From assembly GCF_964059055.1 (NCBI RefSeq), contig NZ_OZ060386.1:390001-422000 (forward strand): DNA of 32,000 nucleotides. The letters run 5' to 3'. Shown piece after piece: positions 2,505 through 31,132 of this stretch (its first letter is position 1; each line of letters starts with the position of its first letter). Made by a program: the position numbers and the translations under genes. The notes beneath the pieces were generated by a model that saw only the letters and a list, made by a program, of their open reading frames with translations, made no database searches and was not told where the DNA came from. The stretch comes from Buchnera aphidicola (Neophyllaphis podocarpi) (lineage in GTDB: Bacteria; Pseudomonadota; Gammaproteobacteria; Enterobacterales; Enterobacteriaceae).

Positions 2505-2508
2505 AATT

Positions 2509-3096: not shown

Positions 3097-3132
3097 ATTG
3101 ATTAATACTATTTTAATATTTTTATTAATTGA

Positions 3133-4033: not shown

Positions 4034-4067
4034 AAAAAAAATAATAATAAATAACATTTTACATTTT

Positions 4068-4149: not shown

Positions 4150-4206
4150 AAAAAAGATTGTATTTTACATGAGTATATATAATAATTAATGTTAGTTGTT
4201 TAATTG

Positions 4207-4281
4207 TGGCTATGATGGGATTTGAACCCATGACCTCAGCGTTATGAGTGCTGCGCTCTAAACCAACTGAGCTACATAGCC
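4207..4281 (-). tRNA. metT: tRNA-Met, elongator type (anticodon CAU)
   Basis: The reverse complement reads GGCTATGTAGCTCAGTTGGTTTAGAGCGCAGCACTCATAACGCTGAGGTCATGGGTTCAAATCCCATCATAGCCA. The acceptor and D arm closely resemble E. coli metT (GGCUACGUAGCUCAGUUGGUUAGAGC). A paired 1:72 position argues against an initiator. A lysidine-modified tRNA-Ile2 cannot be fully excluded from sequence alone. Confidence 0.8.
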
Positions 4282-11147: not shown

Positions 11148-13870
11148 ATGATTAGTAAAAAGATATTAATATTAATAGATGGATCATACTATTTATATCG
11201 TTCTTATTATGCTTTAAAAAATCTTAAAAACGAAAAAGGAGAGCAATCTGGAGCTATATATGGTGTTATAAATTTAATAATAAATTTAATTAAAAAATAC
11301 AAAACAAAAAATATTGCAATAATTTTTGATTATAAAAAAAAAACTTTAGAAATAAAATCTTTGCAGAATACAAAGCTAATAGAAAAATAATGCCAGAAAA
11401 TTTAAAAAATCAAATAGCTCCTTTAATAAAAATAATTAAAGCAATAGGAATACCGTTTATATCTATTAAAAATGTAGAGTCTGATGATGTTATTGGAACT
11501 TTATGCAAACAAGCAGAAAAAGATAATAGAAAAGTAATAATAGTTACGAGCGATAAAGATATGGCTCAATTAGTTACAAAAAATATTAATATTATTAATG
11601 ATAATATTGATTATATTATGGGCATTAAAGAAATAAAGAAAAAATATGGAGTATATCCTAAAAATATAATAGATTTATTAGCGTTAACAGGAGACAAATC
11701 AGATAATATTCCAGGAATTAAAGGAATTGGTCCAAAAACAGCAATAAAACTTATAGAAGAAATAGGTGATTTAACATTAATTTATAAAAACTTAAAAAAA
11801 ATATTAACAATTAAAATACGTGGAGCTAAAAATATTATAAAAAAACTAAATAAAGATAAAAAAAATGCTTTAATATCTTATAAATTAGTAAAAATAAAAT
11901 TAAATGTAAAATTACAAATTTCTCTTGAAAATATAAAAATAAAAAATACAAAAATAAAAACAGTATTAAATTTATTTAAATATTACAATTTTAATAAATG
12001 GATAAAACAAATAGAATTAAATACATGGAATTTAAAAACAGATAATAAATTGAATATTGATAAAAAAGAAAAAAAAAATAAAATAAAACAAAAATTTGTA
12101 TATTTAAATAAAGAAAATTTAGAAAATAATATAAATATTATAAATAATTACAGTATGATTTCAATATATTTTGAAATTAAAGATATAAAAAATGTATGTA
12201 ACAATATTAATATAAGAAACATTTTTATATCAACATCTAAAAAAACTACATATATTATTAATATAGAAGAAATTCATCAAATAAATAACAAAAAAACATT
12301 TGATAAAAATTATATATTTTTAAAATTAAAAAATATTTTAGAAAATAATTTAATAAATAAAATTCACTATAATTTAAAATTAAATTTAATAATTTTTAAA
12401 AAATATAATATAAAATTAAGAGGAAAAAATTTTGATATTATACTAGAATCTTATTTACTAAAAAACACAATAAAAAATCATGATAAGATTGAAATTCTGA
12501 CAGAAAAATGGATACAATTAAAAAATAATACATATAGCAATATAAAAAATAAAATTACAAAAAACATTATAGAAGAAAATCAAAAATCTATAATTATATT
12601 CATGTTACATGTAATAATGTACAAAAAAATTAAAAAAAATAAAAAAATAAAAAATCTATTATTAAATTTAGACATACCTTTATTAAAAGTAATTTTAAGA
12701 ATTGAAAAAAATGGGGTATTAATAAACAAAAATGTGCTAATAAAACATGCAGAAAAAATAAAAATAAGATTAAAAGAAATAAATAAAAAAGTAAAAACAC
12801 TAACAGGAAAAAATTTCAATATTTTATCTACAAATCAGTTAAAAAATATATTATTTAATGATGAACAAAAAAAAAAATTATCAACTAGTAAATTAACATT
12901 GAAAAATTTGTTTAAAAATAATCCATTAATTACTTTAATATTAGAATATCGAAAATTATATAAAATAAAATCTGTATACTGCGACAATTTAATAAAATTG
13001 ATTAATAATATTACAAAAAGAATACATACTTGTTATAATCAAGTAAAAACAACCACAGGAAGATTAACTTCTACAAATCCTAATCTGCAAAACATACCAA
13101 TAAAAAGCAAAGAAGGAAAAATAGTAAGACAAGCATTTATATCTAATAAAAATAATATATTAGTATCAGTAGATTACTCACAAATAGAACTAAGAATTAT
13201 AGCACACTTCTCAAAGGATAAAAAACTTCTATTATACTTTAAAAAAAATAAAGATATTCATATAGAAACAGCTAAAAAAATATTTAATATTAAATCAACA
13301 GAAATAACAAAAGATCAAAGACAGATAGCTAAAACCATAAATTTTGCATTAATTTATGGAATGAAACCTTTTGGACTATCAAAAATATTAAATATAAACA
13401 TAATAGAAGCTGAAAATTATATAAAAATTTTTTTTAAAAAATATAAAGGAGTATATAATTATATAAAACAAAATTTAGAATTTGCAAAAAAAAATAAATA
13501 TGTTTTAACATTGTTTGGAAGAATTTTACATGTTAAAGATATCAATTCTTTGAATAATAATAAAAAAAAATCATCTGAAAGATTGGCAATAAATGGACCT
13601 ATACAAGGTACAGTAGCAGATATTATCAAATATTCTATGATTAAAATAGACCAATGGATTAATAAAAATAAAATACAAAAAAATATAAAAATGATAATGC
13701 AAATACATGATGAATTGATATTTGAAATTAATAAAAATAATATTTATAAATATTGTGAAAAAATTAAAAAAATAATGGAAAATAATAAAAAACTAACTGT
13801 ACCAATTAATATAAATATAAAAACTGGAAAAAATTTACTAGAAATGAAACTAATAAAAATATTAAAATAA
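11148..13870 (+). CDS. polA: DNA polymerase I, reading frame interrupted at an A10 tract (an automated pipeline would flag it as a frameshifted pseudogene)
   Basis: ORF 11148-11390 (5'-nuclease N-terminus: LILIDGSYYLYRSYYA...AIIFDYKKK) and ORF 11390-13870 are one gene. The second frame is already open from 11336 and reads KKNFRNKIFAEYKANRKIMPENLKNQIAPL, matching E. coli [29 protein letters not shown]. Polymerase motifs A (VDYSQIELRIIAH), B (RQIAKTINFALIYGM) and C (QIHDELIFE) are intact. Length plus 1 nt gives 908 codons. Confidence 0.9.
11334..11343 (+). repeat. A10 homopolymer at the polA frameshift point
   Basis: Counted directly: gat tat AAAAAAAAAA ctt. With 11 A the frame reads DYKKKNFRNKIF. 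Confidence 0.95.
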
Positions 13871-13939
13871 AAATATTAGTATCTAATTAATACCTTAATT
13901 AGTAAATTAAAAATATATTAATTAATTTTTATATTAAAT

Positions 13940-14542
13940 TTAATTTTTAGACCATAAATCTAACATATTAGATAATTTTTTAACACTATCTTTGTTAAAA
14001 ATTGAAAATAATTCAACTGTTATTGTATTGTTATAATCTTGAAATATAATATGTTTTATCTGAATTAAAACTTTTTTTTGTAAGCTAAATGATATTTTGT
14101 CAGATTTAGTCAATAAAATTAAAACTTGTATTTTATTTAAAAATGCTAGTTTAATAACTTCTTGATCTATTTTTTTCATAGGATGACGAATATCCATAAA
14201 AACAACTATACCCTGTAAAATAGTACTTGTATTTAAATATCTAAATACTACATTTTTGAAATTTGAATTAATTAAATAAGAATATTTAACATATCCATAA
14301 CCAGGAAAATCTAATAAATAAAATCCTTTAAATACTTCAAAAAAATTAACTAGTTTAGTACAACCTGGAACTTTACTAGTACGTGATAATTTTTTTTGAT
14401 TAGTTAGAAAATTTAAAGCACTAGATTTTCCAGAGTTAGAATAACCTAAAAATGCTACTTCAATTCCTGAATTTATATTTTTATAAGTTATATTAGGTTC
14501 GCTTTTTAAAAATCTAGTTTGGTGATAATTATATTTTGACAA
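13940..14542 (-). CDS. engB: ribosome-biogenesis GTPase EngB (YihA)
   Basis: 200 aa. G1 GYSNSGKSSALN, G3 DFPGYGY, G4 LLTKSDK. Convergent with polA, as I recall for E. coli. Confidence 0.9.
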   Translation of the reverse strand: MSKYNYHQTRFLKSEPNITYKNINSGIEVAFLGYSNSGKSSALNFLTNQKKLSRTSKVPGCTKLVNFFEVFKGFYLLDFPGYGYVKYSYLINSNFKNVVFRYLNTSTILQGIVVFMDIRHPMKKIDQEVIKLAFLNKIQVLILLTKSDKISFSLQKKVLIQIKHIIFQDYNNTITVELFSIFNKDSVKKLSNMLDLWSKN

Positions 14543-14685
14543 TTATTATATCCATAATTTTTAGAAAATTATAAAAATTAAATTATTTAATATTTTACAT
14601 GATAAAATAAATTAAATAAAGTTATTAAAATTAATAAATAATAAAAATATTAAAAGTTTAATAGAGAGGTAAATAAAATTAAACA

Positions 14686-16506
14686 ATGATTAAAAGAATT
14701 AGAAACATAGCTGTGATAGCTCATATTGATCATGGAAAAACTACTTTAATAGAAAAAATATTAGAACAGTCAGATACTTTTAAAAAAACACATAAAACAA
14801 TTAATAAGATAATGGATTCTAATGTAATAGAAAAAGAAAGAGGAATTACTATATTAGCTAAAAATACCTCAATTACATGGAATAATCATACTATAAATAT
14901 AATAGATACTCCTGGTCATGCAGATTTTAGCGGTGAAGTGGAAAGAATTATTTCTATGGTAGATTCAGTTCTTTTAATTGTAGATGCATTAGAAGGTCCT
15001 ATGCCTCAAACTAGATTTGTTACAAAAAAAGCATTTGAAAACAACATAAAACCAATTGTAGTAATAAACAAAATAGATAGAAAAGATGCTAGGCCTGATT
15101 GGGTGATAAATGAAATTTTTGATTTGTTTATAAACTTAAACGCAACAGATGACCAGCTAGATTTTAAAGTAGTATATACTTCAGCATTACTAGGATCATC
15201 AGGAACTGAAATAAATAAAATCAAAAATAATATGGATGCTTTATATAATAGCATAATTAAATATGCTCCTTATCCTAAAGTAAAATTAAACGGTCATTTT
15301 CAAATGCAAATTTCACAATTAGATTATGATAATTATTTAGGAATTGTAGGTATAGGTAAAATTAATAGAGGGATAGTTAAAACAAATCAACAAGTTGCAA
15401 TTATAAATAGTAAAAATGAAATTAAATACGGAAAAATAAATAAAGTTTTAAAATATCAAGGAATAAATAAATTTGAAAGTGAATCAGCAAAAGCAGGAGA
15501 TATTATCGCTATTACTGGTTTAAATAATATCAAAATTTCTAATACAATATGTGATTATAAAAACATAGAAATAATGAAAGAAATAAAGATTGAAAAACCT
15601 ACTGTAACAATGTTTTTTGGAGTTAATACATCACCTTTCTCAGGTAAAGAAGGTAAATATATTACATCTAGAAAAATATTAGAAAGATTAAAAAAAGAAA
15701 CTATAAATAATATAGCTTTAAAAGTAGAAGAAACTAAAAAAAATAACGTTTTTAGCGTATCAGGTAGAGGAGAATTACATATTTCAATATTAATAGAAAA
15801 TATGAGGAGAGAAGGATTTGAATTAGAAATTTCTAGACCAAAAGTAATATTGAGAAAGATCAATAATATTATAAAAGAACCATTTGAAGATGTATTAATA
15901 GAAATAAAAGAAAAACATCAAGGAATAATTATGAAAATAATGGGAGAAAGAAAAAATGATCTAAAAAGTATAAATAAATCAGAAAATAAAGATAGAGTAC
16001 GTATGCACTATACAGCAACAAGTAGATCTTTGATAGGATTTAGATCAGAATTTATAAATATAACATCTGGAACAGGAGTATTATACTCGTCTTTTAGTCA
16101 CTATGATAACTTACAAAACTATAATAAAAAACAAAGAGAAAACGGAGTATTAATTTCTAATAAAGAAGGAACATCTATTGGATTTGCTTTATTTAATTTA
16201 CAAAATAGAGGAAAGCTCTTTATAGGACCAGGAGAAAAAGTTTATGAAGGTCAAATTATTGGAATACATAATAGAAATAATGATTTAACTGTAAATTGTT
16301 TACTTGCAAAAAAACTTACTAATATGAGAGCATCAGGTTCTGATGAAGCTATTAATCTAACAACACCAATTAGAATGAGCTTAGAGGAGTCATTATCATT
16401 TATAAATGATGATGAATTGATAGAAGTAACACCTAAGAATATTCGTTTACGAAAAAAATATTTGACTATAAATGCAAGAAAAAAAACAAGTAAATATATT
16501 AAATAA
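14686..16506 (+). CDS. typA: translational GTPase TypA/BipA
   Basis: 606 aa. AHIDHGKTTL, DTPGHADF, NKIDR. Full-length collinearity with BipA. Confidence 0.95.
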   Translation: MIKRIRNIAVIAHIDHGKTTLIEKILEQSDTFKKTHKTINKIMDSNVIEKERGITILAKNTSITWNNHTINIIDTPGHADFSGEVERIISMVDSVLLIVDALEGPMPQTRFVTKKAFENNIKPIVVINKIDRKDARPDWVINEIFDLFINLNATDDQLDFKVVYTSALLGSSGTEINKIKNNMDALYNSIIKYAPYPKVKLNGHFQMQISQLDYDNYLGIVGIGKINRGIVKTNQQVAIINSKNEIKYGKINKVLKYQGINKFESESAKAGDIIAITGLNNIKISNTICDYKNIEIMKEIKIEKPTVTMFFGVNTSPFSGKEGKYITSRKILERLKKETINNIALKVEETKKNNVFSVSGRGELHISILIENMRREGFELEISRPKVILRKINNIIKEPFEDVLIEIKEKHQGIIMKIMGERKNDLKSINKSENKDRVRMHYTATSRSLIGFRSEFINITSGTGVLYSSFSHYDNLQNYNKKQRENGVLISNKEGTSIGFALFNLQNRGKLFIGPGEKVYEGQIIGIHNRNNDLTVNCLLAKKLTNMRASGSDEAINLTTPIRMSLEESLSFINDDELIEVTPKNIRLRKKYLTINARKKTSKYIK

Positions 16507-16532
16507 TTTTAATTAAAACTTATAATAAAAAG

Positions 16533-16593
16533 GTAAGTAATATAATTCAAAATTTATTAAATTATAATTAATAATAAAAATTATATTACTTAC
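16533..16593 (-). terminator. 15-bp perfect inverted repeat; candidate gmk terminator in the convergent typA/gmk spacer
   Basis: GTAAGTAATATAATT (16533-16547) pairs with AATTATATTACTTAC (16579-16593), plus a G16532:U16594 wobble, with a 31-nt loop. On the minus strand it is followed by CTTTTTATTATA. There is no T-run on the plus side. Confidence 0.4.
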
Positions 16594-16677
16594 TAAAAAC
16601 ACTAAAAATGTATAAATTATCAACAATAATTAATTCATTATAATTACTTAGATAATAAATATAAAAATAATAAATAA

Positions 16678-17301
16678 TTAATTATTTAAAAGTTCATTAA
16701 TTAAAAGTTTATATTTAATTTTCTGGCGATTAGTAGATAAACGTTCTGCGCAAATAATATTTCTTAAATTAATTATAGATGAATTAAAATTATCATTTAT
16801 GATTAAATAATCATATTCAACATAATGATTCATTTCTAAAACAGATTTAGACATACGTTTTTTAATAATATTATTACTATCTTGAGAACGAAATAATAAT
16901 CTATTATACAATTCACTTTTTGAAGGAGGAAGCAAAAAAATACTCTTAGAATCAGGAATTTTATCTTTTATTTGTTTAGCTCCTTGCCAATCTATATCTA
17001 AAAAGATATCCATACCTTCTGATAAAACTTTATAAACATTTAATTTAGAAGTTCCGTAATAATTATTAAATACTTTAGCATATTCTAAAAATTGTTTTTT
17101 TTTAATCATATAAAAAAATTCTTCTTTAGATATAAAGTAATAATGTTGACCATTATTTTCACCTGGTCTAATTGTTCTAGTAGTATGCGAAATAGATACT
17201 TTAGTATCATAAATTAATTTTGTTTTTAACAAAGCATTAATTAAACTAGACTTACCAGCTCCACTAGGAGCCGAAATAATAAAAATTTTTCCTATAGACA
17301 T
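16678..17301 (-). CDS. gmk: guanylate kinase
   Basis: 207 aa. P-loop SAPSGAGKSSL, HTTRTIRPGENNGQHYYF. Confidence 0.95.
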   Translation of the reverse strand: MSIGKIFIISAPSGAGKSSLINALLKTKLIYDTKVSISHTTRTIRPGENNGQHYYFISKEEFFYMIKKKQFLEYAKVFNNYYGTSKLNVYKVLSEGMDIFLDIDWQGAKQIKDKIPDSKSIFLLPPSKSELYNRLLFRSQDSNNIIKKRMSKSVLEMNHYVEYDYLIINDNFNSSIINLRNIICAERLSTNRQKIKYKLLINELLNN

Positions 17302-17433
17302 AAAATTTAATTTATTTAATCATAAAAATATATTTGTATTTAAAAAATAATTATACATTTTAAAATATTTTTTTATTTAAATTTTATATAAAATTAAAAA
17401 TAAAAATAATAAAAATTATAAAAATAATATATA

Positions 17434-18393
17434 TTATATTATTTTCAATAAAATATTTGTTTTATAAATACGTAATTTAATATCATTAACTAAATTTTTA
17501 TCTAATACTCCCTGAATTATAAAATATATATTACTTACTGTTATAATATTTAAAATTTTTCCTGCAATATACCATTTACCAAAAACTTGTTTTTCAATTA
17601 AATTACTATTAACATATAAATTATTATATTTTCCAAATAAACAATACAAAGATTTTTTATTAGATTTAGAAAAATTAATTTTAGAAATCATTTCCTGTCC
17701 AATATAACAACCTTTATCAAAACTTAAACCATGATTAGAAGCTAAATTTAAATTCTGAGGAAAAAACTTACCAATGATTTTATTATTTATGATAGGGAAA
17801 TTAGATCTAATTAACAAACTTAAAAAGTAAGAATTATCATAAGAAACAATGTTTTTATTTAATTGCTGAATACGATTATTAAAGTTATCAACATGTATAA
17901 TTATTAAAAAATGTTTAATAGGATATTTAAAACTTAAAACAAATATATCTTTATTGCATATTAATAAATTATTAAATTTATTAAACTTAATTTCAAAATT
18001 TTCTTCTAAGAAACTAACAGCTTTAAAACCTAAAACACCAATCAATACTAATTCAGAATTTTGTTCAATATTTAATCTAGAAAAAATGGAATATTTTTTT
18101 AATTCAAAAATTTGTTTATTAGTAATATTAGAAGGCTGAATATAATAAAAATCTTTTAAATATTTGAATATGTAAAAAACACTTAAAATCTTTCCTTTAT
18201 TATTGCAATGAGCAGAAATTAAATAGTTATTTTTATTTAGTAATTTAATATCAATAGTAAATTGACTTTGCAGATAATTAAAACTATCAATACCACATAT
18301 TTTAATTATTTTTAATTCATTCAATAAAAATAATTTTAACGGTACATCTTTTTTTAAAATAGTATTTAAATCAGAAAAAGTATCTAAAACCAT
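17434..18393 (-). CDS. ygfZ: folate-dependent tRNA-modification/Fe-S protein YgfZ
   Basis: 319 aa with the family-defining KGCYIGQE motif near the C-terminal third. Divergent from prfB as in E. coli. Confidence 0.88.
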   Translation of the reverse strand: MVLDTFSDLNTILKKDVPLKLFLLNELKIIKICGIDSFNYLQSQFTIDIKLLNKNNYLISAHCNNKGKILSVFYIFKYLKDFYYIQPSNITNKQIFELKKYSIFSRLNIEQNSELVLIGVLGFKAVSFLEENFEIKFNKFNNLLICNKDIFVLSFKYPIKHFLIIIHVDNFNNRIQQLNKNIVSYDNSYFLSLLIRSNFPIINNKIIGKFFPQNLNLASNHGLSFDKGCYIGQEMISKINFSKSNKKSLYCLFGKYNNLYVNSNLIEKQVFGKWYIAGKILNIITVSNIYFIIQGVLDKNLVNDIKLRIYKTNILLKII

Positions 18394-18555
18394 AAAATGT
18401 CGCCTAGAAATATTTTTATATACAATAAATAGTATTAATTGTAAATAAATATATCATATTGTACAAAAACATATAAGTTTATATAAATAAAATAATATAA
18501 AATTAAAAAATATTATATAATTTTTAATATTTTATTCAAAAAAGAAAAATATAAT

Positions 18556-19695
18556 ATGAAAGATATATATATAATTAAAAATAAAATAAATTATATAAAA
18601 AAAAATATAAAAATAATAAAAAAAAATTTACAAATTAATAAAAAAAACAAACGATTAAAAAAAATAAATCAAGAATTAGCAACACCGCAAATTTGGAAAA
18701 ATAATAAACTTTATGCAAAAAATTTAAATAAAGAAAAATATAATTTAGAAAAAATTATAAATAAAATTAACATAATACAAACAAGTATTAATGATATTAA
18801 TGATATAATTATTTTTTCTTTAAAAGAAAAAGATAAATCTTTATTAAAAGAGACAGAAAAATTATTAAAAGATCTGGAAAAAAGAATAAAAAAAATTAAA
18901 ATACAGCAAATGTTTTTTAAAAAAAATGATAAAAATAATTGTTATATAGATATTCAACCAGGATCAGGCGGAATAGAAGCTCAAGATTGGGCTAAAATGC
19001 TATTAAAAATGTATTTAAAATGGGCTGAAAATAAAAATTTTAAAAGTGAAATAATAGATATATTACCAGGAGAAATAGCTGGAATTAAATATGCTACATT
19101 AAAAATAGAAGGAAAATATGCTTTTGGATGGATGAGAACAGAAAACGGTATACATCGTTTAGTACGCAAAAGCCCATTTGATTCTACAGGAAAAAGACAT
19201 ACATCATTCAGTTCAATTTTTGTTTATCCTGATATAAATAATAAAGATATAAATATAGATTTTAATCTTTCTGATATCAGAATAGATGTATATAGAGCTT
19301 CAGGAGCAGGAGGTCAACATGTTAATAGAACAGAATCAGCTGTAAGAATAACCCATATACCAACTGGCATAGTAACTCAATGTCAAAATGATAGATCTCA
19401 ACATAAGAATAAAGAAACAGCTATTAAACAAATGAAATCTAAATTATATAAATTAGAACTTATTAAAAAAAATATAGAAAAAAAAAATCTAGAAAAACAA
19501 AAATCAGATATTAGATGGGGTAATCAAATTAGATCTTACATATTAGACGATTCTAGAATTAAAGATATAAGAACTAATATAGAAAGCAGAAATATACAAG
19601 CAATACTAAATGGAGAATTAGATATATTCATATTAGAAAGTCTAAAATTAGAACTACAAAAGGATTATGAAAATGATAGAAAAAAAAATAAATAA
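18556..19695 (+). CDS. prfB: peptide chain release factor 2, single uninterrupted ORF
   Basis: 379 aa. RF2-specific SPF tripeptide (RKSPFDS), GGQ motif (YRASGAGGQHVNRTESAVRITHIPTGIVTQCQNDRSQHKNK) and DIRWGNQIRSY. No in-frame TGA in the first 30 codons. Confidence 0.95.
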   Translation: MKDIYIIKNKINYIKKNIKIIKKNLQINKKNKRLKKINQELATPQIWKNNKLYAKNLNKEKYNLEKIINKINIIQTSINDINDIIIFSLKEKDKSLLKETEKLLKDLEKRIKKIKIQQMFFKKNDKNNCYIDIQPGSGGIEAQDWAKMLLKMYLKWAENKNFKSEIIDILPGEIAGIKYATLKIEGKYAFGWMRTENGIHRLVRKSPFDSTGKRHTSFSSIFVYPDINNKDINIDFNLSDIRIDVYRASGAGGQHVNRTESAVRITHIPTGIVTQCQNDRSQHKNKETAIKQMKSKLYKLELIKKNIEKKNLEKQKSDIRWGNQIRSYILDDSRIKDIRTNIESRNIQAILNGELDIFILESLKLELQKDYENDRKKNK

Positions 19696-21175
19696 AAACA
19701 ATAATGAATTTCAAGTCAGGTTAAATAAATTACAAGATATAAAAAGAAAAGGTATAGCTTTTCCTAATAATTTTAAAACTAGTGATAATATTTATACAAT
19801 AAAAAAAAAATATATATCTGAAAGTAATGAAAAATTAAAAAAAATAAATAAAAAATTTTGTATAGCAGGAAGAATAGTAAATCAAAGGAAAATAGGTCAA
19901 GTGACATTTCTTTCACTGCAAGATATAAATGGAACAATTCAGATATATATAAAAAAACAAGTAATAACCAAAAAAATTTATGATAAAGAAATAAAAAAAT
20001 TAGATTTAGGAGATATAATTGGAGTTAAAGGTAAATTATTTAAAACTATAACTAAAGAACTTACTATCTATTGCGAAAAATTTCAACTTTTAACTAAATG
20101 TTTAAGATCTTTACCAGATAAATTTCATGGATTAGCTAATAAAGAAATAAAATATCGAAAAAGATATTTAGATCTTATAACTAATAGAAATATATGTAAT
20201 ATCTTTAAAAAAAGGTTTTTGATTATAAAATCAATTCGTAAATTTATGGATAATAATGATTTTATAGAAGTAGAAACTCCTATGATGCAAAATATTCCAG
20301 GAGGAGCTATAGCTAATCCTTTTATCACATATCATAAATCTTTAAATATAAATTTATATCTAAGAATATCACCAGAATTAAGTTTAAAACAATTAATTAT
20401 AGGAGGATTTAATAAAATATTTGAAATAAATAGAAATTTTAGAAATGAAGGTTTATCTCTTCGTCATAATCCAGAGTTTACAATGATGGAATTATACATA
20501 TCATATATCACATATGTTGAAATGATGCAATTTGCTGAAAATTTATTAAAATATTTAGTAAAAAAAATCTTTAAAAAAAATAAAATAAAATTTAAAGGAT
20601 ATAACATTGATTTTAGTAAAAAATTTCAAATATTAACAATGAAAGAGTCTATTTTAAAATTTTATCCAAAAATAAAAATAAATGACTTAAAAAATAAAAA
20701 TGAAATTATAAAAATTGCTAATTATTTAGATATTAATGTAGAAAGTAACTTTACTAAAGAAAGAATTATATTGGAAATATTTGAAAAAAAAATAGAAAAT
20801 AAATTAATAGAACCTACATTTATCACAGAATATTCATTAGAATCTTCTCCTCTTGCTAGAACAAATGATAACAATCCTAATGTAGCTGATAGATTTGAAT
20901 TATTTATAGGAGGAATGGAAATAGGCAATGGTTTTTCAGAATTAAACGATTCTGAAGATCAAAGCAATAGATTCAAAAAACAATATATTGAAAAATATAA
21001 AAATAAAAATATAGAAAAACAATTCTACGATAAAGAATATATAAAAGCTCTTGAATATGGTCTGCCTCCTACTGCTGGTATGGGTATAGGTATAGATAGA
21101 ATAGTTATGTTATTAACAAATAGCTATAATATAAAAGATGTTATATTATTTCCAATATTAAAACCAATAAAATAA
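19667..21175 (+). CDS. lysS: lysyl-tRNA synthetase (class II)
   Basis: 502 aa. GIAFPNNF, KFHGL, RYLDLI, FIEVETPMMQ, FEINRNFRNEG and GLPPTAGMGIGIDR. Either candidate start (19667 or 19673) lies inside the prfB 3' end. Confidence 0.95.
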   Translation: MKMIEKKINKNNNEFQVRLNKLQDIKRKGIAFPNNFKTSDNIYTIKKKYISESNEKLKKINKKFCIAGRIVNQRKIGQVTFLSLQDINGTIQIYIKKQVITKKIYDKEIKKLDLGDIIGVKGKLFKTITKELTIYCEKFQLLTKCLRSLPDKFHGLANKEIKYRKRYLDLITNRNICNIFKKRFLIIKSIRKFMDNNDFIEVETPMMQNIPGGAIANPFITYHKSLNINLYLRISPELSLKQLIIGGFNKIFEINRNFRNEGLSLRHNPEFTMMELYISYITYVEMMQFAENLLKYLVKKIFKKNKIKFKGYNIDFSKKFQILTMKESILKFYPKIKINDLKNKNEIIKIANYLDINVESNFTKERIILEIFEKKIENKLIEPTFITEYSLESSPLARTNDNNPNVADRFELFIGGMEIGNGFSELNDSEDQSNRFKKQYIEKYKNKNIEKQFYDKEYIKALEYGLPPTAGMGIGIDRIVMLLTNSYNIKDVILFPILKPIK

Positions 21176-21183
21176 AAACAAAA

Positions 21184-22443: not shown

Positions 22444-22453
22444 TAAAATTATA

Positions 22454-23323
22454 ATGAATTTTTCTTTAAACTTTCAGTTATATAATTATGTTATTTTTTT
22501 AACTAAAAATATACCTATAAATTGGTATGGATTAATGTATATTTTTATATTTTTAATATATATAGTGTATGGAACTAAAAAATCAAACATTCCAAATTTT
22601 TTTTTAACAAAAAAAGAAATAGAAAATTTGTTATTTTATGGTTTTTTAGGTATGCTAGTAGGAGGTAGAATAGGATATATAATATTATATAATATAAAAT
22701 TTTTTATTATTAATCCTATTTATATATTCAAAATATGGATGGGAGGCATGTCATTTCACGGAGGATTAATAGGAATATTAATCTCATTGTTATTTTTTTC
22801 TTATAGAACTAAAAAAAACTTCTTTTATATTTCTGATTTTATTACCCCATTAGCACCATTAGGAATTACTTTAGGAAGATTAGGCAATTTTATAAATGGA
22901 GAGTTATGGGGAAGAATATCAGTTAATAATAGTTTTTCAATATTATTTCCTAATTCAAAATATGTAGATCTAAAAGAAACAATAATCCATCCCCAATATA
23001 AAATATTTATAAATAAATTCGGGGTAATTCCTAGACACCCATCTCAATTATATGAACTTTTATTAGAAGGAATAATTTTATTTTTATTACTAAATAAAAT
23101 GAATAAAAAAAATAAAAATCCGGGATACATATCTTCACTGTTTTTAATATTTTATGGAATACTAAGATTTATATGTGAATATTTTAGAGAACCTGATTAT
23201 CAAATTAAATTTATAATAAATTATTTTACAATAGGTCAAATTTTATCTTTTCCAATGATTATATTAGGTATAGTAACTATTACAAAATGTTACATAAATT
23301 CATTCATTAAAAAATTAAAATAA
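22454..23323 (+). CDS. lgt: prolipoprotein diacylglyceryl transferase
   Basis: 289 aa, polytopic membrane protein. [14 protein letters not shown] is identical to the E. coli Lgt signature as I recall it. HPSQLYE. lgt-thyA operon. Confidence 0.94.
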
Positions 23324-23324
23324 A

Positions 23325-24119
23325 ATGAAACAATATATAAAACTATTAAAAAAAATCATTAAACATGGAAAAAATAAAGACGATAGAACAGGTATAGGTA
23401 CAAAATCAATTTTTGGCTATCAAATGAAATTCAATTTAAAAGAAGGTTTACCTATACTTACAACAAAAAAATGTCATATACCTTCTATTATTCATGAATT
23501 ACTTTGGTTTTTAAGTGGAGATACAAATATAAAATATCTTCAAAAAAATAAAATCTCAATTTGGAATGAGTGGGCAGATAAAAATGGTAATTTAGGTCCT
23601 ATATATGGTAAACAATGGAGAAAATGGACAAATAATGAAGGAAAAAACATAGATCAAATAGCTAATATAATAAAAGAAATAAAACATAACCCAAATTCGA
23701 GAAGAATAATAGTATCTTCATGGAATGTAGGAGAAATTGATAAAATGCTTTTACCTCCTTGCCATATAATATTTCAATTTTATGTTATAAACAGGAAATT
23801 AAGTTGTCAAGTATATCAAAGATCTTGTGATGTATTCTTGGGATTACCGTTCAATATAACTAGCTATTCAATATTACTATCTATGATAGCTCAACAATGT
23901 AATTTAAATATAGGAAAATTTATATGGACAGGAGGTGATGTACATTTATATAAAAACCATATAAATTTAGCAAAAATTCAAATTTCTAGAACTCCATCTA
24001 AATTACCTGAATTAATTATTAATAAAAAACCTTCTTCGATATTTAAATATAATTTTAATAACTTCGAAATAAAAGGATACAAACCACAATCTACAATTAA
24101 AGCAAAAGTAGCTATTTGA
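23325..24119 (+). CDS. thyA: thymidylate synthase
   Basis: 264 aa. [16 protein letters not shown], catalytic Cys in [22 protein letters not shown] stop. Confidence 0.96.
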
Positions 24120-24156
24120 AAAAATTTAAAATAAAAATATATAAATAAAATAAAAT

Positions 24157-25479
24157 ATGAACAAAAAAATACATATAAAAACCTGGGGATGTCAAATGAA
24201 CGAGTACGATTCATTAATTATCACCAGGACACTACAAAAAGATAAATATACTATAACAAAAGTAGCAGAAGAAGCAGATGTTTTAATTTTAAATACTTGC
24301 TCTATACGTGAAAAAGCACAAGAAAAATTATTTCACCAATTAGGTAGATGGAAAAAAATAAAAGAAAAAAAACCTAAATTAATAATTGCTGTAGGAGGTT
24401 GTGTAGCTGCACAAGAAGGTAAAAAAATTAAATTAAGAGCAAAATATATAGACATAATTTTTGGTCCTAGAACATTAAATTTATTACCTAATATGATTAA
24501 ACAAATAAGTCAAAAAAATAATTTTGTAATAAATATAGATTCACCTAAAATAATTAAAAAATTTAATATCAATTTAAAAAAAATAAATAAAGGAATAAAA
24601 ACATCAATTTCTATAATGGAGGGATGTAATAAATATTGTAGTTTTTGTATTGTACCACATACAAGAGGAACAGAAATTAGTAGACCTCATAATAGTATTA
24701 TATCTGAAATATCAGAATTATCACATAATGGAACAAAAGAAATAACTTTATTAGGCCAAAATGTAAACGCTTATAGAGGAAAAAACGAACACGGAGAAAA
24801 ATGTAATTTTGCTGATTTAATAAGACGTATATCTTTAATAAAAGAAATTAAACGTATAAGATTTATTACTAGTCATCCTGTAGAATTTAATGAGGAAATT
24901 ATAAATTTATATAAAGAAATACCTAAGTTAGCTAGCTTCTTACATCTTCCTGTACAAAGCGGATCAGATAAAATACTTAAACTTATGAAAAGAAGACATA
25001 CTATTAAAGAATATAAAAATATAATAAAAAAAATATTGAAATTTAGACCTAACATGCAATTTAGTTCTGATTTTATAATAGGATTTCCAGGAGAAACAGA
25101 ATCAGATTTTAATAAAACATTAAAGTTAGTTAAAGAAATAAAATTTGATTTTAGTTTTAGTTTTATATATTCTCCTAGACCAGGAACTCTAGCATGTAAT
25201 TTTGTAAATAATACAACATTAAACGAAAAGAAAAATAGACTTAATATATTACAGAAACAAATACTTAATCAAGGTAGAATATGGACTAAAAGTATGCTAA
25301 ATACAAAACAAGAAGTTTTGGTTGAAGGATACACAAAACAAAAAAATAATGAGTTTTTTGGAACAACAGAAAATAATAGAACTATATATTTTAATAGCGA
25401 TTATAATATAATAGGAAAATTAGTTATAGTAAAAATAAAAAATATTTACAAAAATAAAATTTTAGGAAAAATTATATAA
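24157..25479 (+). CDS. miaB: tRNA-i6A37 methylthiotransferase MiaB
   Basis: 440 aa. N-terminal IKTWGCQMNEYDS, radical-SAM GCNKYCSFCIVP, C-terminal TRAM-like region. Confidence 0.94.
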   Translation: MNKKIHIKTWGCQMNEYDSLIITRTLQKDKYTITKVAEEADVLILNTCSIREKAQEKLFHQLGRWKKIKEKKPKLIIAVGGCVAAQEGKKIKLRAKYIDIIFGPRTLNLLPNMIKQISQKNNFVINIDSPKIIKKFNINLKKINKGIKTSISIMEGCNKYCSFCIVPHTRGTEISRPHNSIISEISELSHNGTKEITLLGQNVNAYRGKNEHGEKCNFADLIRRISLIKEIKRIRFITSHPVEFNEEIINLYKEIPKLASFLHLPVQSGSDKILKLMKRRHTIKEYKNIIKKILKFRPNMQFSSDFIIGFPGETESDFNKTLKLVKEIKFDFSFSFIYSPRPGTLACNFVNNTTLNEKKNRLNILQKQILNQGRIWTKSMLNTKQEVLVEGYTKQKNNEFFGTTENNRTIYFNSDYNIIGKLVIVKIKNIYKNKILGKII

Positions 25480-25531
25480 TCAAAAATAATTTTATGATAC
25501 ATATACTAAATACAAAAACAATGAAATTATA

Positions 25532-25986
25532 ATGAAAAAAATTATTGTAAATGTACAAATAGCCTGTAAAAAAAAAATATACCAGAGAAAACAAAATTAA
25601 TATACTGGATTAAATATATATTTAAAAAATTCAAAAAAAAAATAAATATAACAATAAGAGTTGTTAGTATAAAAGAAATAAAAAATTTAAATCAAAAATA
25701 TAGAGGAAAAAATACACCTACAAATATATTATCTTTTCCTTTCATAAATCATCCTTATAAAAAATCATTGTTAATAGGTAATTTAATTATCTGTAATAAA
25801 ATTATGCAAATTGAAGCAAAAAAGCAAAGAAAAGAAATAAATGAACATTGGGCACATATTATAATACATGGAGGATTACACTTAATGGGATATAATCATA
25901 TAAAAAACAAAGAAGCAAATACTATGGAAAATTTAGAAATTAAAATTTTAAAAAAAATGGGTTATAAGAATCCATATATTAAATAA
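25532..25986 (+). CDS. ybeY: endoribonuclease YbeY, reading frame interrupted at an A10 tract
   Basis: ATG at 25532 gives MKKIIVNVQIACKKK (E. coli ...LDLQLACED...), then a stop after 7 more codons. The frame one base back is open from 25570 and reads IPEKTKLIYW...INITIRVVSIKEIKNLNQKYRGKNTPTNILSFPF...HWAHIIIHGGLHLMGYNH (zinc motif H-x3-H-x5-H). The ORF track shows only its last 72 codons. Length plus 1 nt gives 152 codons. Confidence 0.88.
25568..25577 (+). repeat. A10 homopolymer at the ybeY frameshift point
   Basis: Counted directly: gcc tgt AAAAAAAAAA tat acc. With 11 A the frame reads ACKKKNIPEKTKL. Confidence 0.95.
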
Positions 25987-26025
25987 TACATTACTAAATT
26001 AATTAAAAGAGAAACAAAAAAATAT

Positions 26026-26913
26026 ATGAACGATGATAGTTGTTCAAAAAAAACAGATAAATCCAATAGAAAAGGTTTTTTTTCTTTATTGTTACATCAA
26101 ATATTCAATGAAGAACCAAAAAACTGCGAAGACTTATTAAAATTAATTCGTAATTCAGAACAAAAAGAATTAATAGATCATGACACAAGAGATATGATAG
26201 AAGGAGTATTACATATAACTAAAAAAAGAGTAAGAGAAATAATGATTCCAAGAACACAAATGGTTACATTAAAGTTAAATTTCAGTTTAAGTAAATGTTT
26301 AAATATAATCATAAAATCTGCTCATTCAAGATTTCCTGTAATAAGTGAAGATAAAGATCGTATAGAAGGTTTTTTAATTGCTAAAGATTTACTACAATTT
26401 ATGCATAATGAAAAAAATTTTTTAATTAATAAAATATTAAGACCAGCAATTATAGTACCTGAAAGTAAATATGTTAATCAAATGTTGAAAGATTTTAAAT
26501 CTAAAAGATATCATATGGCAATAGTTATAGATGAATTTGGAGCTTTATCAGGATTAGTAACGATAGAAGATATTTTAGAGTTAATTGTAGGAGAAATAGA
26601 AGATGAATATGATAAAAAAAATCAGGAAGATAAAAATATAAATCAGCTTAGTAAAAATACTTACAAGATAAAATCTTTAACTTTAATAAAAGATTTTAAC
26701 GAGATATTTAATACTAATTTTAGTTATGAAGAAGTAGATACAATTGGGGGTTTAGTAATGCAAAAATTTGGAAGATTACCAAAAAAAGGAGAAAATATTA
26801 AAATTAATAAATATAATTTTAAAATTTCAATAGTAAATAGTCATCGTATAATACAAGTTGTTGTTATGATTCCTAAAGACATGCCTATTCCCAAAAAATT
26901 ACTAGATATTTGA
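26026..26913 (+). CDS. corC: CBS-domain magnesium/cobalt efflux protein CorC (YbeX)
   Basis: 295 aa. MIPRTQM, a CBS pair, [23 protein letters not shown] and a CorC/HlyC C-terminal domain. Follows ybeY as in E. coli. TGA stop. Confidence 0.92.
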
Positions 26914-26954
26914 TACTCATAATAATTTTAATAAAAAAATAAAAATGTTAATAA

Positions 26955-27004
26955 AAAGATAATAGTTATGTATTATAATTAAATAATATATAACTATTAT
27001 CTTT
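26955..27004 (+). other. 22-bp hairpin (21 Watson-Crick pairs plus 1 G:U, 6-nt loop) between corC and leuS
   Basis: AAAGATAATAGTTATGTATTAT (26955-26976), loop AATTAA (26977-26982), ATAATATATAACTATTATCTTT (26983-27004). Verified base by base. It ends 14 nt before the leuS ATG, and no T-run follows. Confidence 0.75.
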
Positions 27005-27018
27005 AAAAATAAAAAAAA

Positions 27019-29580
27019 ATGAAAAAAGAATATAATTTTAAATCTATAGAAAGCAATATCCAAAAATACTGGGAAGAAAATAAAATTTTTAAAGTCAAAG
27101 AAGAAAAAAATAGAAAAAAATTCTATTGTTTATCTATGTTACCTTATCCTTCTGGAAATTTACATATAGGTCATGTTAGAAATTACACAATAGGAGATGT
27201 AATATCAAGATTTTATCGAATGTTAGGGAAAAATGTTTTAAATCCTATAGGATGGGATGCTTTTGGATTACCAGCAGAAGAAGCAGCTATTAAAAATAAT
27301 ACATCAGCAAAAATATGGACTAAAAAAAATATTTCATATATGAAGAAACAATTAAAAAAATTAGGATTTTCATTTGATTGGAGTAGAGAAATAAATACAT
27401 CTAAAAAAGAATATTTTATATGGGAGCAATGGTTTTTTATACAATTATATAAAAAAAAATTAGTTTATAAAAAAAAATCATTAGTAAATTGGTGTCCTAC
27501 AGATAAAACTGTATTAGCAAATGAGCAAGTAATTAATAAAAGATGCTGGCGTTGTAATTCAGAAATAAAATTAAAAAATATGTATCAATGGTTTATAAAA
27601 ATTACAAAATATGCTGAAGAATTATCAGATGATTTAAATAGTCTAAATGATTGGCCTAAGAAAGTTAAAAAAATGCAAAAAAACTGGATTGGAAAATCAA
27701 AAGGAATGGAAATAATATTCAATGTATATAATAAAAGTAGTAAAATATCAGTTTACACTACTAGAATAGAAACATTAATGGGAACAACATGTATATTATT
27801 ATCTTATAAACATGATTTTGTAAAGAAATATTTAAATAAAAACTTAAATATTACCAATTTTATAAAATCTCATGATTTAGATAAAGATAAATATCTTTAT
27901 AAAAAAAATGAAAAAATAGGAATAAATACTAATGAAATAGCTATAAATCCTATAAATCAAGAAAAAATACAAATATGGATTGTGAATTTTATTTACTCAG
28001 ATTATGGAACAGGAGCAGCAATATGTGTTCCAGCTCACAATAAAAATGATCTTGAATTTGCATTAAAATATAATATACCTATAAAAAAAGTTTTATTAAA
28101 AAATGATAATAAAAATAAATTAAAAAAAACAGATGAAAGCATACTATGTAATTCAGGTGAATTCAATGGTTTAAGTATTACAAAAGCGAATAAAATAATT
28201 TCAGAAAAAATAATCAAAATGAATAAAGGAAAAAAAAGAATTTTTTTTAAACTTAAAGATTGGTGTATATCAAGACAAAGATATTGGGGAACACCTATTC
28301 CTATGGGTGTAATAGATAATAAAAAAATTACATATGTTCCTGAGAATAAATTACCAATAACTCTAAATACAAAATCTTATAATAAAAAAAAATTATGTAA
28401 TAATAATATTATAATTAATGATAAAAAAAATATAATTTTAGAAAAAGATACATTTGATACATTTATAGCATCATCATGGTATTATGCTAGATATACATGC
28501 CCTAAATTCACAAAAGGTATGCTTAATCCTAAAAAAACAAGTTACTGGTTACCAGTTGATTTATATATAGGAGGAATTGAACACGCAATAATGCATTTAC
28601 TATATTTTAGATTTTACCATAAATTAATGCGTGATTTTAAACTAGTAAAAGGAAATGAGCCTGTAAAAAAATTATTATGTCAAGGTATGGTATTATCTGA
28701 TGCATTCTATTATACAACAAAAAAAGGAGAACAAAAATGGATTAAAAAAAATGATGCCTTAATAACATACAACAAATCAGGAAAAATAAAAAATGCATAT
28801 TTAAAAAACACAAAACAAAAATTGATACATGTAGGAATGACTAAAATGTCTAAATCTAAAAACAATGGGGTAAATCCAAATGAAATAATAAAAAAATATG
28901 GCTCAGATACTTTACGTTTATTTGTAATTTTTGCAGCTCCAATAGAAAATAATTTAGAATGGAATGAAGCAGGAATAAGAGGTATGAGTAGATTTTTAAA
29001 AAAAATATGGAGAATAACATATAATTATATAAATCAAAAAATAGAAAAAAAAATTGAATGTAATAACAAAAAAAACGAAATAAAAGAAATAAATAAAATA
29101 CAACAAAAATTACATGAAACTATTAAAAAAGTATCAGAAGATATAAAAAATAAAAATTCATTAAACACTGCTATATCTGCAATAATGAAATTTACTAACA
29201 AAATTAGTGAAATCAATTTAATTACAAATAAAAATAATTCATTAATTAAAGAATCAATAATATCAATTATAAAAATGTTATATCCTTTTGCTCCTCATTT
29301 TAGCTGTGCTCTATGGAAAGAAATACAAGGAAATTATAATATAGAAGATCATAAATGGCCTGTATTAAATAAAAAATTACTTGTTTGTAATAAATACTTA
29401 ATTATCATACAAATAAATGGTAAAACTAGAAGAAAAATTAAAATAAATAAAAATTTTACTAAAGAAGACATTTTTAATAAAATTAAAAAAGATAAATTAG
29501 TAGATAAATATATTGAAAATAAGAAAATAAAAAAAATTATATTTATTCCTAAAAAAATTATAAATATTGTTATATATTAA
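27019..29580 (+). CDS. leuS: leucyl-tRNA synthetase
   Basis: 853 aa. HIGH region PYPSGNLHIGHVRNY, CP1 editing-domain block YGTGAAICVPAHNKNDLEFA, KMSKS as GMTKMSKSKNN. Confidence 0.96.
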   Translation: MKKEYNFKSIESNIQKYWEENKIFKVKEEKNRKKFYCLSMLPYPSGNLHIGHVRNYTIGDVISRFYRMLGKNVLNPIGWDAFGLPAEEAAIKNNTSAKIWTKKNISYMKKQLKKLGFSFDWSREINTSKKEYFIWEQWFFIQLYKKKLVYKKKSLVNWCPTDKTVLANEQVINKRCWRCNSEIKLKNMYQWFIKITKYAEELSDDLNSLNDWPKKVKKMQKNWIGKSKGMEIIFNVYNKSSKISVYTTRIETLMGTTCILLSYKHDFVKKYLNKNLNITNFIKSHDLDKDKYLYKKNEKIGINTNEIAINPINQEKIQIWIVNFIYSDYGTGAAICVPAHNKNDLEFALKYNIPIKKVLLKNDNKNKLKKTDESILCNSGEFNGLSITKANKIISEKIIKMNKGKKRIFFKLKDWCISRQRYWGTPIPMGVIDNKKITYVPENKLPITLNTKSYNKKKLCNNNIIINDKKNIILEKDTFDTFIASSWYYARYTCPKFTKGMLNPKKTSYWLPVDLYIGGIEHAIMHLLYFRFYHKLMRDFKLVKGNEPVKKLLCQGMVLSDAFYYTTKKGEQKWIKKNDALITYNKSGKIKNAYLKNTKQKLIHVGMTKMSKSKNNGVNPNEIIKKYGSDTLRLFVIFAAPIENNLEWNEAGIRGMSRFLKKIWRITYNYINQKIEKKIECNNKKNEIKEINKIQQKLHETIKKVSEDIKNKNSLNTAISAIMKFTNKISEINLITNKNNSLIKESIISIIKMLYPFAPHFSCALWKEIQGNYNIEDHKWPVLNKKLLVCNKYLIIIQINGKTRRKIKINKNFTKEDIFNKIKKDKLVDKYIENKKIKKIIFIPKKIINIVIY

Positions 29581-30127
29581 TAATATGTTCAAAGACAAAA
29601 AATATAAGATAATAGTATTAATTTTATTAATTAATATGTTTATGATATCTGGATGTGTATTAGAAGAAAATGCATTAATTAAAATAGATCCTATAATTAA
29701 TATATTATTAGATGATAGCAGAATAAATGATAACTCTATTAAGGAAATAATAAGAGAAAAATTTAGTTATTATAATGTAAGTATATTAAATAAAACAAAA
29801 GAAAATAAAAACACGCCAGAATTAATTATTTTAGATATAAAAGAAAAAAAGAAATCCGATAACTTAAGCAATAAAAATAATTTATATGAATATTATATTC
29901 ATATTAAAATAAATTATATTATCAATATAAATAATCAGTCATGTAAAAATAGTATTAAAATTGTAAAATCGTTTATAAGTTGTAGTAAATTTATATATGA
30001 AAAAGAAGAAATTTATGAAAATTTAAAGAAAACAATAAAAAAAGATGCTATAGAAAAATTAATACAAAAAATTTTAATTGAATATTTAATAAATAAAAAT
30101 AATATTCAAAAATGTTATATAAATTAA
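29567..30127 (+). CDS. lptE: LPS-assembly lipoprotein LptE (RlpB)
   Basis: 186 aa. Hydrophobic leader ending in the lipobox-like FMISGC. Size and position between leuS and holA match lptE. Primary-sequence similarity is weak by eye. The start may instead be the Met at 29586, which would remove the 14-nt overlap with leuS. Confidence 0.7.
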   Translation: MLYINNMFKDKKYKIIVLILLINMFMISGCVLEENALIKIDPIINILLDDSRINDNSIKEIIREKFSYYNVSILNKTKENKNTPELIILDIKEKKKSDNLSNKNNLYEYYIHIKINYIININNQSCKNSIKIVKSFISCSKFIYEKEEIYENLKKTIKKDAIEKLIQKILIEYLINKNNIQKCYIN

Positions 30128-30140
30128 GGCTTAAAATAAA

Positions 30141-31132
30141 ATGACAAATTATATAAATAGCATAGAATTTTATAAAAACGCTTTTTTTAAAAAAAATTTT
30201 TATTTTTTAATAGGTAATGAAACTAAAGTTACGCAGGAAATCACAGAAAAAATAATTTTAAATTGTAACAAAAAAAATTTTAACAAAATTAAAAACTTCT
30301 ATGTAGAAGATCATAAAATTTTTAATAAAATATTTTATAAAATTCATGAACAAGATTTTTTAGAAAAAAAACAAATTATAATAATCAAAACTGATATAAA
30401 GTCATTTAGCATAAAGATAAAAAAAAAATTCAACACTTAGTATCAATAAAAAATAAAAACATAATATGTATTATTTTTTTTGAAAAAAATATATTAAATA
30501 ATAAAAATTATTTAGAAATGTTAAAAACAAATCAAGACATAGTTTTTATAAAATGCAATAAACCCAAAATAAACGAATTATATGAATGGATTAAATTTAA
30601 ATCTAAAAAACTAAAAATAAAAATTAGCAAGATAAATCATGAGTTAATAATAAAAAATTATATAGATAACTTTACAGGTTTAATTAATTTTATAAATATA
30701 ATATCTCTTATATGGCCAAATAAAAAAATAAATAGAAAAAAAATTCAACAAATTATAGAATGTGAAAATAGATTTACATACTCACAATGGATTAATTATA
30801 TTATTAAAGGAAACCAAGAAAAAACTATAAAAATTCTACAATATTTTAAAATACAAAATTATAGTCCGGTAATATTAATTAGAGTATTACAAAATTTTAT
30901 ATTAAATATTATAAATTTAAAAAGAAAAACTAAATATTGTATTTATGAAAATTATTTAAACAAAAATATTTTAACAAAAAATAATAATTTAGAAGAAAAA
31001 TCAAAAAAAATAAATAATAAAAAATTATATAATTCAATAAAATTAATAAGTTTAATAGAATTAAAAATCAAAAGAAATTTTAAGAAAAATGTTTGGTTAG
31101 AACTAATTAATTTATCATTAACATTATGTTAA
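30141..31132 (+). CDS. holA: DNA polymerase III delta subunit, reading frame interrupted at an A10 tract
   Basis: ORFs 30141-30440 and 30518-31132 are one gene. The N-terminal FYFLIGNETKVTQE resembles E. coli YLLLGNDPLLLQE. The frame one base back is open from the A tract through 30518 (KKKIQHLVSIKNKNIICIIFFEKNILNNKNYLEMLKT...). The C-terminal VWLELINLSLTLC resembles VWAELEGLSLLLC. Length plus 1 nt gives 331 codons. Confidence 0.85.
30419..30428 (+). repeat. A10 homopolymer at the holA frameshift point
   Basis: Counted directly: aag at AAAAAAAAAA ttc. With 11 A the frame reads IKIKKKIQHLVS. Confidence 0.95.

Follow-up and report, generated by a model that had tools for sequence, protein, structure and literature searches.

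Do genes whose reading frames are broken within long runs of adenine remain in use and, if so, how is their frame restored? The question is raised by polA, ybeY, and holA, three genes in a stretch of 32,000 nucleotides (nt) from Buchnera aphidicola (Neophyllaphis podocarpi) (NZ_OZ060386.1, positions 390,001 to 422,000 of the forward strand), here called the window, which belongs to a genome of 559,180 bp. Each of the three is interrupted at a run of exactly ten A residues (A10). We favor, with a probability of roughly 0.7 for the combined claim, a reading in which the genes carry genuine, heritable one-base deletions that are older than the split between two Neophyllaphis symbiont lineages, are still used and have been maintained, and would be rescued mainly by slippage of RNA polymerase. 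The broken tracts, the open reading frames (ORFs) on either side of them, and the products (in amino acids, aa) that result when one A is added (+1 A) are as follows.

11334–11343, plus strand: A10 that breaks polA; needs +1 A (a −1 frame move)
25568–25577, plus strand: A10 that breaks ybeY at codons 13–15; needs +1 A
30419–30428, plus strand: A10 that breaks holA at about codon 96; needs +1 A
11148–13870, plus strand: polA, in two ORFs (11148–11390 and 11390–13870); +1 A product of 907 aa
25532–25986, plus strand: ybeY; +1 A product of 151 aa
30141–31132, plus strand: holA, in two ORFs (30141–30440 and 30518–31132); +1 A product of 330 aa

Three-frame translation showed that at each broken tract a single gene passes from one open frame into another, always with a displacement of −1 downstream. 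Adding one A to the tract yielded single ORFs without an internal stop of 907 (PolA), 151 (YbeY), and 330 (HolA) codons, which bears out the proposal of an initial annotation, made from the letters alone, that all three breaks are A10 tracts mended by one more A. The intervals that permit a shift, running from the last stop in the downstream frame to the first stop in the upstream frame, are 11336–11387, 25570–25597, and 30410–30437, with the A10 tract in each, and their narrowness therefore places frame correction at or very near the tract. The repaired proteins match NCBIfam equivalogs end to end and above the curated cut-offs: PolA matches NF004397 (DNA polymerase I) at 862 bits (cut-off 720) over residues 6–900 in a single stretch, YbeY matches TIGR00043 at 128.6 bits (cut-off 45), and HolA matches TIGR01128 (holA) at 90.9 bits (cut-off 80) over residues 20–327, again in a single stretch. 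The +1 A translations also stand verbatim in public protein records, as CAL4324222.1 (DNA polymerase I, 907 aa), CAL4324428.1 (endoribonuclease YbeY, 151 aa), and CAL4324504.1 (DNA polymerase III subunit delta, 330 aa).

Internal restart of translation was considered and rejected for each gene. In ybeY, the first 63 codons of the post-shift frame include no ATG, GTG, or TTG; in polA, a restart would cost the 5′ nuclease domain its first ~80 residues; and in holA, the protein would be split at residue 96 of 330, a position inside domain I as judged from the E. coli delta subunit.

We compared the window with two related genomes, CP135042 (labelled N. varicolor; 99.4% identical to the window) and CP135039 (labelled N. 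podocarpi; 95.4% identical), and with Logan contigs of run SRR29340286, which are 99.9–100% identical to CP135042 and therefore constitute another assembly of the reads from that sample. The three frame-breaking tracts are exactly A10 in both CP135042 and CP135039, so that the frameshifted state is conserved in related strains, a point that the initial annotation had raised, and the Logan assembly has A10 at the ybeY and holA tracts. CP135039 and CP135042 were sequenced on NovaSeq (2x150) and assembled with NOVOPlasty/MEGAHIT and Pilon (PMC11193766). The window record most likely derives from the INRAE/Genoscope project (HiSeq2500 2x251, SPAdes; bioRxiv 10.1101/2022.08.28.505559), as judged from the CAL accessions and from a passage of that preprint that mentions newly sequenced Buchnera of Neophyllaphidinae. 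The same A10 was thus found in three Illumina-based genomes from two laboratories, with different aphid samples and assemblers.

Species labels and identities do not run in parallel in these data: window positions 9655–31186, labelled N. podocarpi, are the part that is 99.4% identical to the N. varicolor genome and only 95.4% identical to the other genome labelled N. podocarpi, which suggests host misidentification or a cryptic species in one data set. As a separate observation on the Logan contigs, ends elsewhere in that assembly fall in ordinary sequence, and an end inside the polA A-tract may indicate read-length variation or heteroplasmy.

An exhaustive scan of the window found exactly eight A-runs of at least ten, all on the sense strand of plus-strand genes (three in polA, two in ybeY, and one each in prfB, lysS, and holA). 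This agrees exactly with the initial annotation, which had counted eight such A-runs and no T-run of ten or more by eye; gene annotation confirmed its placement of all eight on the coding strand, and translation upheld its division of them into three that break the frame (polA 11334, ybeY 25568, and holA 30419) and five that are in frame, as follows.

12069–12078, plus strand: in-frame A10 in polA; a G interrupts the tract in CP135039
12867–12877, plus strand: in-frame A11 in polA
19478–19487, plus strand: in-frame A10 in prfB
19801–19810, plus strand: in-frame A10 in lysS; CA9 in CP135039
25633–25642, plus strand: in-frame A10 in ybeY; lies 55 nt past the tract that breaks the frame

Selection on either side of the breaks was measured as the ratio of nonsynonymous to synonymous substitution rates (dN/dS) between the window and CP135039, at a synonymous divergence (dS) of ~0.15 and with one-sided p values against neutrality.

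polA, 62 codons before the tract: dN/dS 0.12, p=0.098 (not significant)
polA, 838 codons after the tract: dN/dS 0.19, p=9e-18
ybeY, 135 codons after the tract: dN/dS 0.12, p=0.006
holA, before the tract: dN/dS 0.23, p=0.04
holA, 234 codons after the tract: dN/dS 0.47, p=0.03
intact neighbouring genes: dN/dS 0.05–0.42

The pre-shift segment of ybeY is too short for a neutrality test; its twelve codons, MKKIIVNVQIAC, align with the YbeY N-termini of three distant Buchnera. Neither lineage has additional stops or frame-changing insertions or deletions (indels) in polA, ybeY, or holA, except that the extreme 3′ end of polA differs by 14 nt. The broken tracts themselves are uninterrupted and unchanged in both lineages, and substitutions distinguish the lineages at two of the five long in-frame tracts (Fisher p=0.46). 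Over the same divergence, none of the eight coding tracts of at least ten changed length, and intergenic A/T runs did so in 5 of 30 cases at length 5, 3 of 6 at length 6, and 2 of 3 at length 7. Because the frameshifts are common to both lineages, they are older than the split, and the genes have since been preserved with their frames broken, which is incompatible with simple recent pseudogenes. The persistence of purifying selection after the frameshift is our reason for holding that polA, ybeY, and holA probably remain in use.

Two readings would remove the need for any rescue. The A10 calls could be sequencing or assembly errors in tracts that are truly A11, as the initial annotation had offered in its third option of homopolymer under-calling. 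Homopolymers are error-prone in sequencing, and one Logan contig of SRR29340286 ends within the polA tract after nine A (window 11334–11342), which may reflect variation in read length there. The three genomes from two laboratories, one of them 4.6% diverged, nevertheless agree, and the Logan assembly agrees at two of the three sites; A11 was called at 12867 and A12–A13 in other Buchnera, which upholds the earlier argument that the in-frame A11 of polA speaks against a simple length cap; and a systematic loss of one A would instead break the four in-frame A10 tracts. High-coverage Illumina consensus is not prone to systematic one-base loss at A10. Together with the in-frame A10 and A11 tracts in the same genes, the agreement among the three Illumina genomes and the Logan assembly effectively refutes the artefact reading, to which we give almost no credence, and the frame breaks are genuine. 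Alternatively, the genes could be young pseudogenes heading for loss that yield no full-length protein. Gene loss in endosymbionts usually begins with homopolymer indels, the post-shift dN/dS of holA is 0.47, and the GenBank/RefSeq records of CP135039 and CP135042 contain no polA gene, divide holA into pieces of 99 aa and 204/219 aa (three of the four named 'hypothetical protein', the other 'DNA polymerase III subunit delta'), and begin ybeY after the tract, as a coding sequence of 135 aa that starts at a non-canonical ATA directly behind it. Against decay, the 838, 135, and 234 downstream codons are free of stops and indels in both lineages despite an origin before the split (dS ~0.15), dN/dS is significantly below 1 in all three post-shift segments and in the pre-shift segment of holA, the short pre-shift parts are conserved too, and unconstrained A/T runs of 6–7 nt changed length in five of nine cases over the same divergence. 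Moreover, holA is a single-copy gene for a clamp-loader subunit that is essential in E. coli. We therefore regard ongoing gene loss as unlikely.

The origin of the breaks was traced in syntenic regions of three outgroup Buchnera, OZ060393, CP135047 (from Formosaphis), and OZ060418, in all of which ybeY (149–152 aa) and holA (331–340 aa) are single ORFs. At the polA site, OZ060393 reads GAT TCA AAA AAA AAA AAC TTT AGA (S-K-K-K-N-F-R) in frame, and the window reads GAT TAT AAA AAA AAA A-C TTT AGA, so that the +1 A version of the window is the in-frame state of OZ060393. Because of this match, the polA break most likely arose as a one-base deletion from an in-frame A11 ancestor. As judged from these outgroups, the frameshift events are specific to the Neophyllaphis symbiont lineage. 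A comparable break occurs elsewhere, in the lgt gene of CP135047 (Formosaphis micheliae; 12830–13777 of the retrieved region), which was not called as a gene and is frameshifted among a cluster of A10, A7, and A9; its shift interval spans all three runs, and +1 A at the A10 (13038–13047) restores the frame, with the same polarity as in the window.

The polA gene itself has a varied history among these genomes. Its full-length form (907 aa, with the 5′ nuclease and the Klenow part) is kept in the Neophyllaphis Buchnera and, in split form, in the Formosaphis Buchnera, and only the 5′–3′ exonuclease of 285–294 aa is kept in OZ060393 and OZ060418 (3546–4430 and 3404–4261 of the respective retrieved regions). 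In CP135047, polA (1334–4008 of the retrieved region) consists of ORFs of 304 aa and 602 aa that overlap at 2200–2248, with only an A5 near the break, and could represent either a genuinely split gene or a pseudogene.

Frame breakage in the window is confined to the longest tracts, affecting three of the eight of at least ten and none of 83 at A8–A9 (Fisher p=4.6e-4). The background to this is a sequence rich in A: the window is 20.7% G+C, its plus strand is 47% A and 32% T, and it contains 169 A-runs of at least seven (83 A7, 57 A8, 21 A9, 7 A10, and 1 A11) and 23 T-runs of at least seven, the longest being 9. Long sense-strand A-runs are abundant because lysine makes up 14% of residues and is encoded by AAA in 95% of cases. 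The location of all tracts of at least ten on the plus strand follows from the location of most window genes there (~80% of coding sequence); the minus-strand genes hold five sense-strand A9 runs. Compared to a within-gene codon shuffle, runs of at least eight were enriched (91 observed vs 62), with sense-strand A-runs peaking at length 8, and runs of at least ten were depleted (8 observed vs 17.1 ± 3.9 expected, P=0.0045), a depletion that suggests selection against tracts beyond ~9–10. A survey of a further 8.4 kb to the right of the window found one more A10, in frame, in recC. In OZ060393, the syntenic 21.5 kb contain 15 A-runs of at least ten (up to A13) and one T12, all of them in frame, which makes the apparent ceiling on run length a peculiarity of the Neophyllaphis symbiont lineage.

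How might full-length protein be made from such genes? Between 12 and 50% of transcripts are frame-corrected in poly(A)-frameshifted genes of Buchnera and Blochmannia (Tamas 2008, as summarised in PMC5009743; also PMC3017870). Traverse and Ochman measured indels in Buchnera transcripts directly: within A/T homopolymers most are insertions of a single base, whose frequency climbs exponentially as the run lengthens to 11 nt, and transcriptional deletions are rarely tied to homopolymers (PMC5574713). On this model, one-base deletions would have arisen in the sense-strand poly(A) runs of polA, ybeY, and holA before the two Neophyllaphis symbiont lineages diverged; RNA polymerase would slip backwards on the T10 template and add one extra A in a fraction of transcripts; and these +1 A transcripts would encode the full-length protein. 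Ribosomes that slip by −1 at a low level on A AAA AAA may contribute as well. Only alleles that need +1 A would be expected to persist, as polymerase slippage on A/T runs inserts rather than deletes, and only tracts of ~10 or longer would slip often enough for a frameshift to be tolerated. The exclusive +1 A polarity and the restriction of breakage to long tracts could both arise because slippage in Buchnera inserts bases and grows with run length. From the sequence we infer, as the most likely account, that these sites do slip, how efficiently they do so, and that the main step is transcription and not translation. The first option of the initial annotation, an A11-to-A10 deletion tolerated through slippage, is accordingly the best supported of the three that it listed, and it is the established explanation in Buchnera and Blochmannia.

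Several points weigh against this reading. The post-shift dN/dS of holA is the highest in the region. The polarity was identical in all three cases, which is not significant alone (two-sided p=0.25), and the argument from polarity rests on three cases (four with lgt of CP135047), a number that is not statistically significant. The Buchnera data of PMC5574713 include no transcription error found to restore a reading frame. The in-frame A10 and A11 tracts of polA and ybeY would be corrupted by the same slippage, so that the yield of correct mRNA would be low or modest; for polA, the ceiling is given by s(1−s)^2, or ~15%, on the assumption of an equal slip probability s at each long tract. Finally, transcriptional slippage and ribosomal −1 slippage give an identical protein, and from the sequence the two are inseparable.

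This last point bears on the possibility that the frame is restored mainly in translation, by a −1 shift or sliding of the ribosome on A AAA AAA. That heptamer is present in the upstream frame at all three tracts, a tandem slip by −1 would produce a protein identical to that of +1 A, polA, ybeY, and holA as well as lgt of CP135047 all call for a move in the −1 direction, and frameshifting on A-runs has long been known (PMC5009743). Folding of the 70 nt downstream of each tract is nonetheless weak (−1.6, −2.6, and −6.4 kcal/mol) and no better than in shuffled sequences (z-scores of +1.2 to −1.15), and no Shine-Dalgarno-like element (GGAG or AGGA) was found within 25 nt upstream of any of the three. 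In E. coli, AAA-AAA is less shift-prone than AAA-AAG. The experimental precedent in Buchnera, moreover, is heterogeneity of tract length in mRNA (PMC3017870, PMC5009743), and we consider a mainly ribosomal correction improbable. A further alternative, the second option of the initial annotation, accepts the breaks as real and holds that selection actively preserves the out-of-frame A10 as a throttle that limits low-copy proteins of replication and RNA processing. It would account for the equal length and uninterrupted state of all three broken tracts in both lineages, when two of five in-frame tracts have been substituted, and for the lack of reversion to A11 although indels are frequent in much shorter unconstrained runs; precedents in Blochmannia involve dnaX and dnaG, and it has been argued that frameshifts of this kind are maintained by selection (Wernegreen 2010, as reported in citing papers including PMC3017870). 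The perfect conservation of the tracts is suggestive, but the numbers are tiny, the contrast of 3/3 with 3/5 is not significant (Fisher p=0.46), and deletion-biased mutation or limited time would look no different. Selection for a throttle thus appears doubtful. In its combined form, in which the uniform signature of A10 tracts one A short would reflect both a rule (only deletions from in-frame A11 can be rescued, as slippage only inserts) and the retention of these alleles by selection as fixed expression throttles, the idea is a tentative one.

A canonical programmed −1 frameshift cassette of the dnaX type was considered and rejected, as the heptamer is present without downstream structure or an upstream Shine-Dalgarno element. 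The likeness to dnaX-type ribosomal frameshifting (A AAA AAG with a Shine-Dalgarno element and a hairpin) lies in a slippery heptamer of lysine codons and the −1 direction, whereas here the heptamer is all A, with no upstream Shine-Dalgarno element and no downstream hairpin. Programmed transcriptional slippage, as in Thermus dnaX, insertion sequence (IS) transposases, and potyvirus P3N-PIPO, is similar in that polymerase stutter on an A/T run, which we propose here, moves some of the transcripts into another frame. In those systems, however, one gene yields two useful products, whereas here the unslipped product is a truncated fragment without evident use, and the case therefore looks like damage limitation and not a designed switch.

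The preferred reading, deletion followed by rescue through transcriptional slippage, places the three genes in a class already described in Tamas 2008 and Wernegreen 2010, as far as these are represented in later papers, and in Williams and Wernegreen 2010 (PMC3017870). As in that class, the genome is AT-rich and reduced, each break is a single-base frameshift in a sense-strand run of about A10 in an otherwise intact gene, the genes are conserved under purifying selection, and the frameshifts are shared between species. Information-processing genes are hit in both settings (dnaX, dnaG, and pth in B. vafer; polA, holA, and ybeY here). The present case differs in host lineage and gene set, in that slippage is deduced from sequence, and in density, with three of 28 genes in the window affected vs 4–8 genes per whole Blochmannia genome (PMC3017870). 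Within the same genus, pheA of Periphyllus/Chaitophorinae Buchnera has a conserved poly(A) break that was judged to be transcriptionally rescued (Manzano-Marín et al., bioRxiv 10.1101/2022.08.28.505559). That case involves another gene and another aphid subfamily, but the annotation rule for such breaks stated in the same preprint by the depositor group is the one that gave CAL4324222, CAL4324428, and CAL4324504; polA, ybeY, and holA are not discussed in those of its passages that a term search located. The mechanism and its evolutionary pattern are thus already published (2008–2010), and the three instances are already annotated by their depositors as functional. Their main value is practical: automatic pipelines miss polA, fragment holA, and mis-start ybeY, and so understate the replication and RNA-processing capacity of the Neophyllaphis symbiont, whereas the curated record restores all three. 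Beyond this, they add three well-conserved core information-processing cases to the known slippage-rescued class and provide a small, consistent data set on the polarity and length threshold of poly(A) frameshifts, with no new mechanism.

The window contains gshA′, endA, rsmE, ygfA, rpiA, tRNA-Gln/Leu/Met, glnS, pyrG, eno, ispF, ispD, ftsB, polA, engB, typA, gmk, ygfZ, prfB, lysS, lysA, lgt, thyA, miaB, ybeY, corC, leuS, lptE, holA, and nadD, all of them intact other than polA, ybeY, and holA. Its LysS matches WP_367676064.1 and CAL4324330.1 at 100% identity, both from Buchnera aphidicola (Neophyllaphis podocarpi), and the nearest LysS proteins outside the clade of Neophyllaphis Buchnera are only 57–60% identical, a gap from which it follows that the Neophyllaphis symbiont lineage is isolated within Buchnera. 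A scan of genome contigs with LysS returned only distant spirochaete and Bacilli matches and no relatives, and exact look-ups of EndA and of protein P0001 retrieved no record.

The tRNA genes form a cluster between rpiA and glnS (3961–4281, minus strand), consisting of tRNA-Gln(TTG), tRNA-Leu(TAG), and tRNA-Met(CAT), with an A9 at 4033–4041 adjoining tRNA-Gln. In CP135042, an otherwise finished genome, the gmk–ygfZ spacer has the ambiguous bases GNTN inserted after window position 17428. The prfB gene (18556–19695) is one uninterrupted ORF of 379 codons whose 3′ end overlaps the start of lysS by 29 nt; it is without the programmed +1 frameshift site that E. coli prfB is known to have. In CP135039, its product (371 aa) ends in another C-terminus because of a 1-nt indel in the A-run at 19657, and similar one-base indels in short A-runs near the stops of miaB (25467) and corC (26893) likewise alter C-terminal tails between the two Neophyllaphis symbiont lineages. 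These stop-proximal indels of miaB, corC, and prfB match the pattern of 3′-end indels described for Blochmannia.

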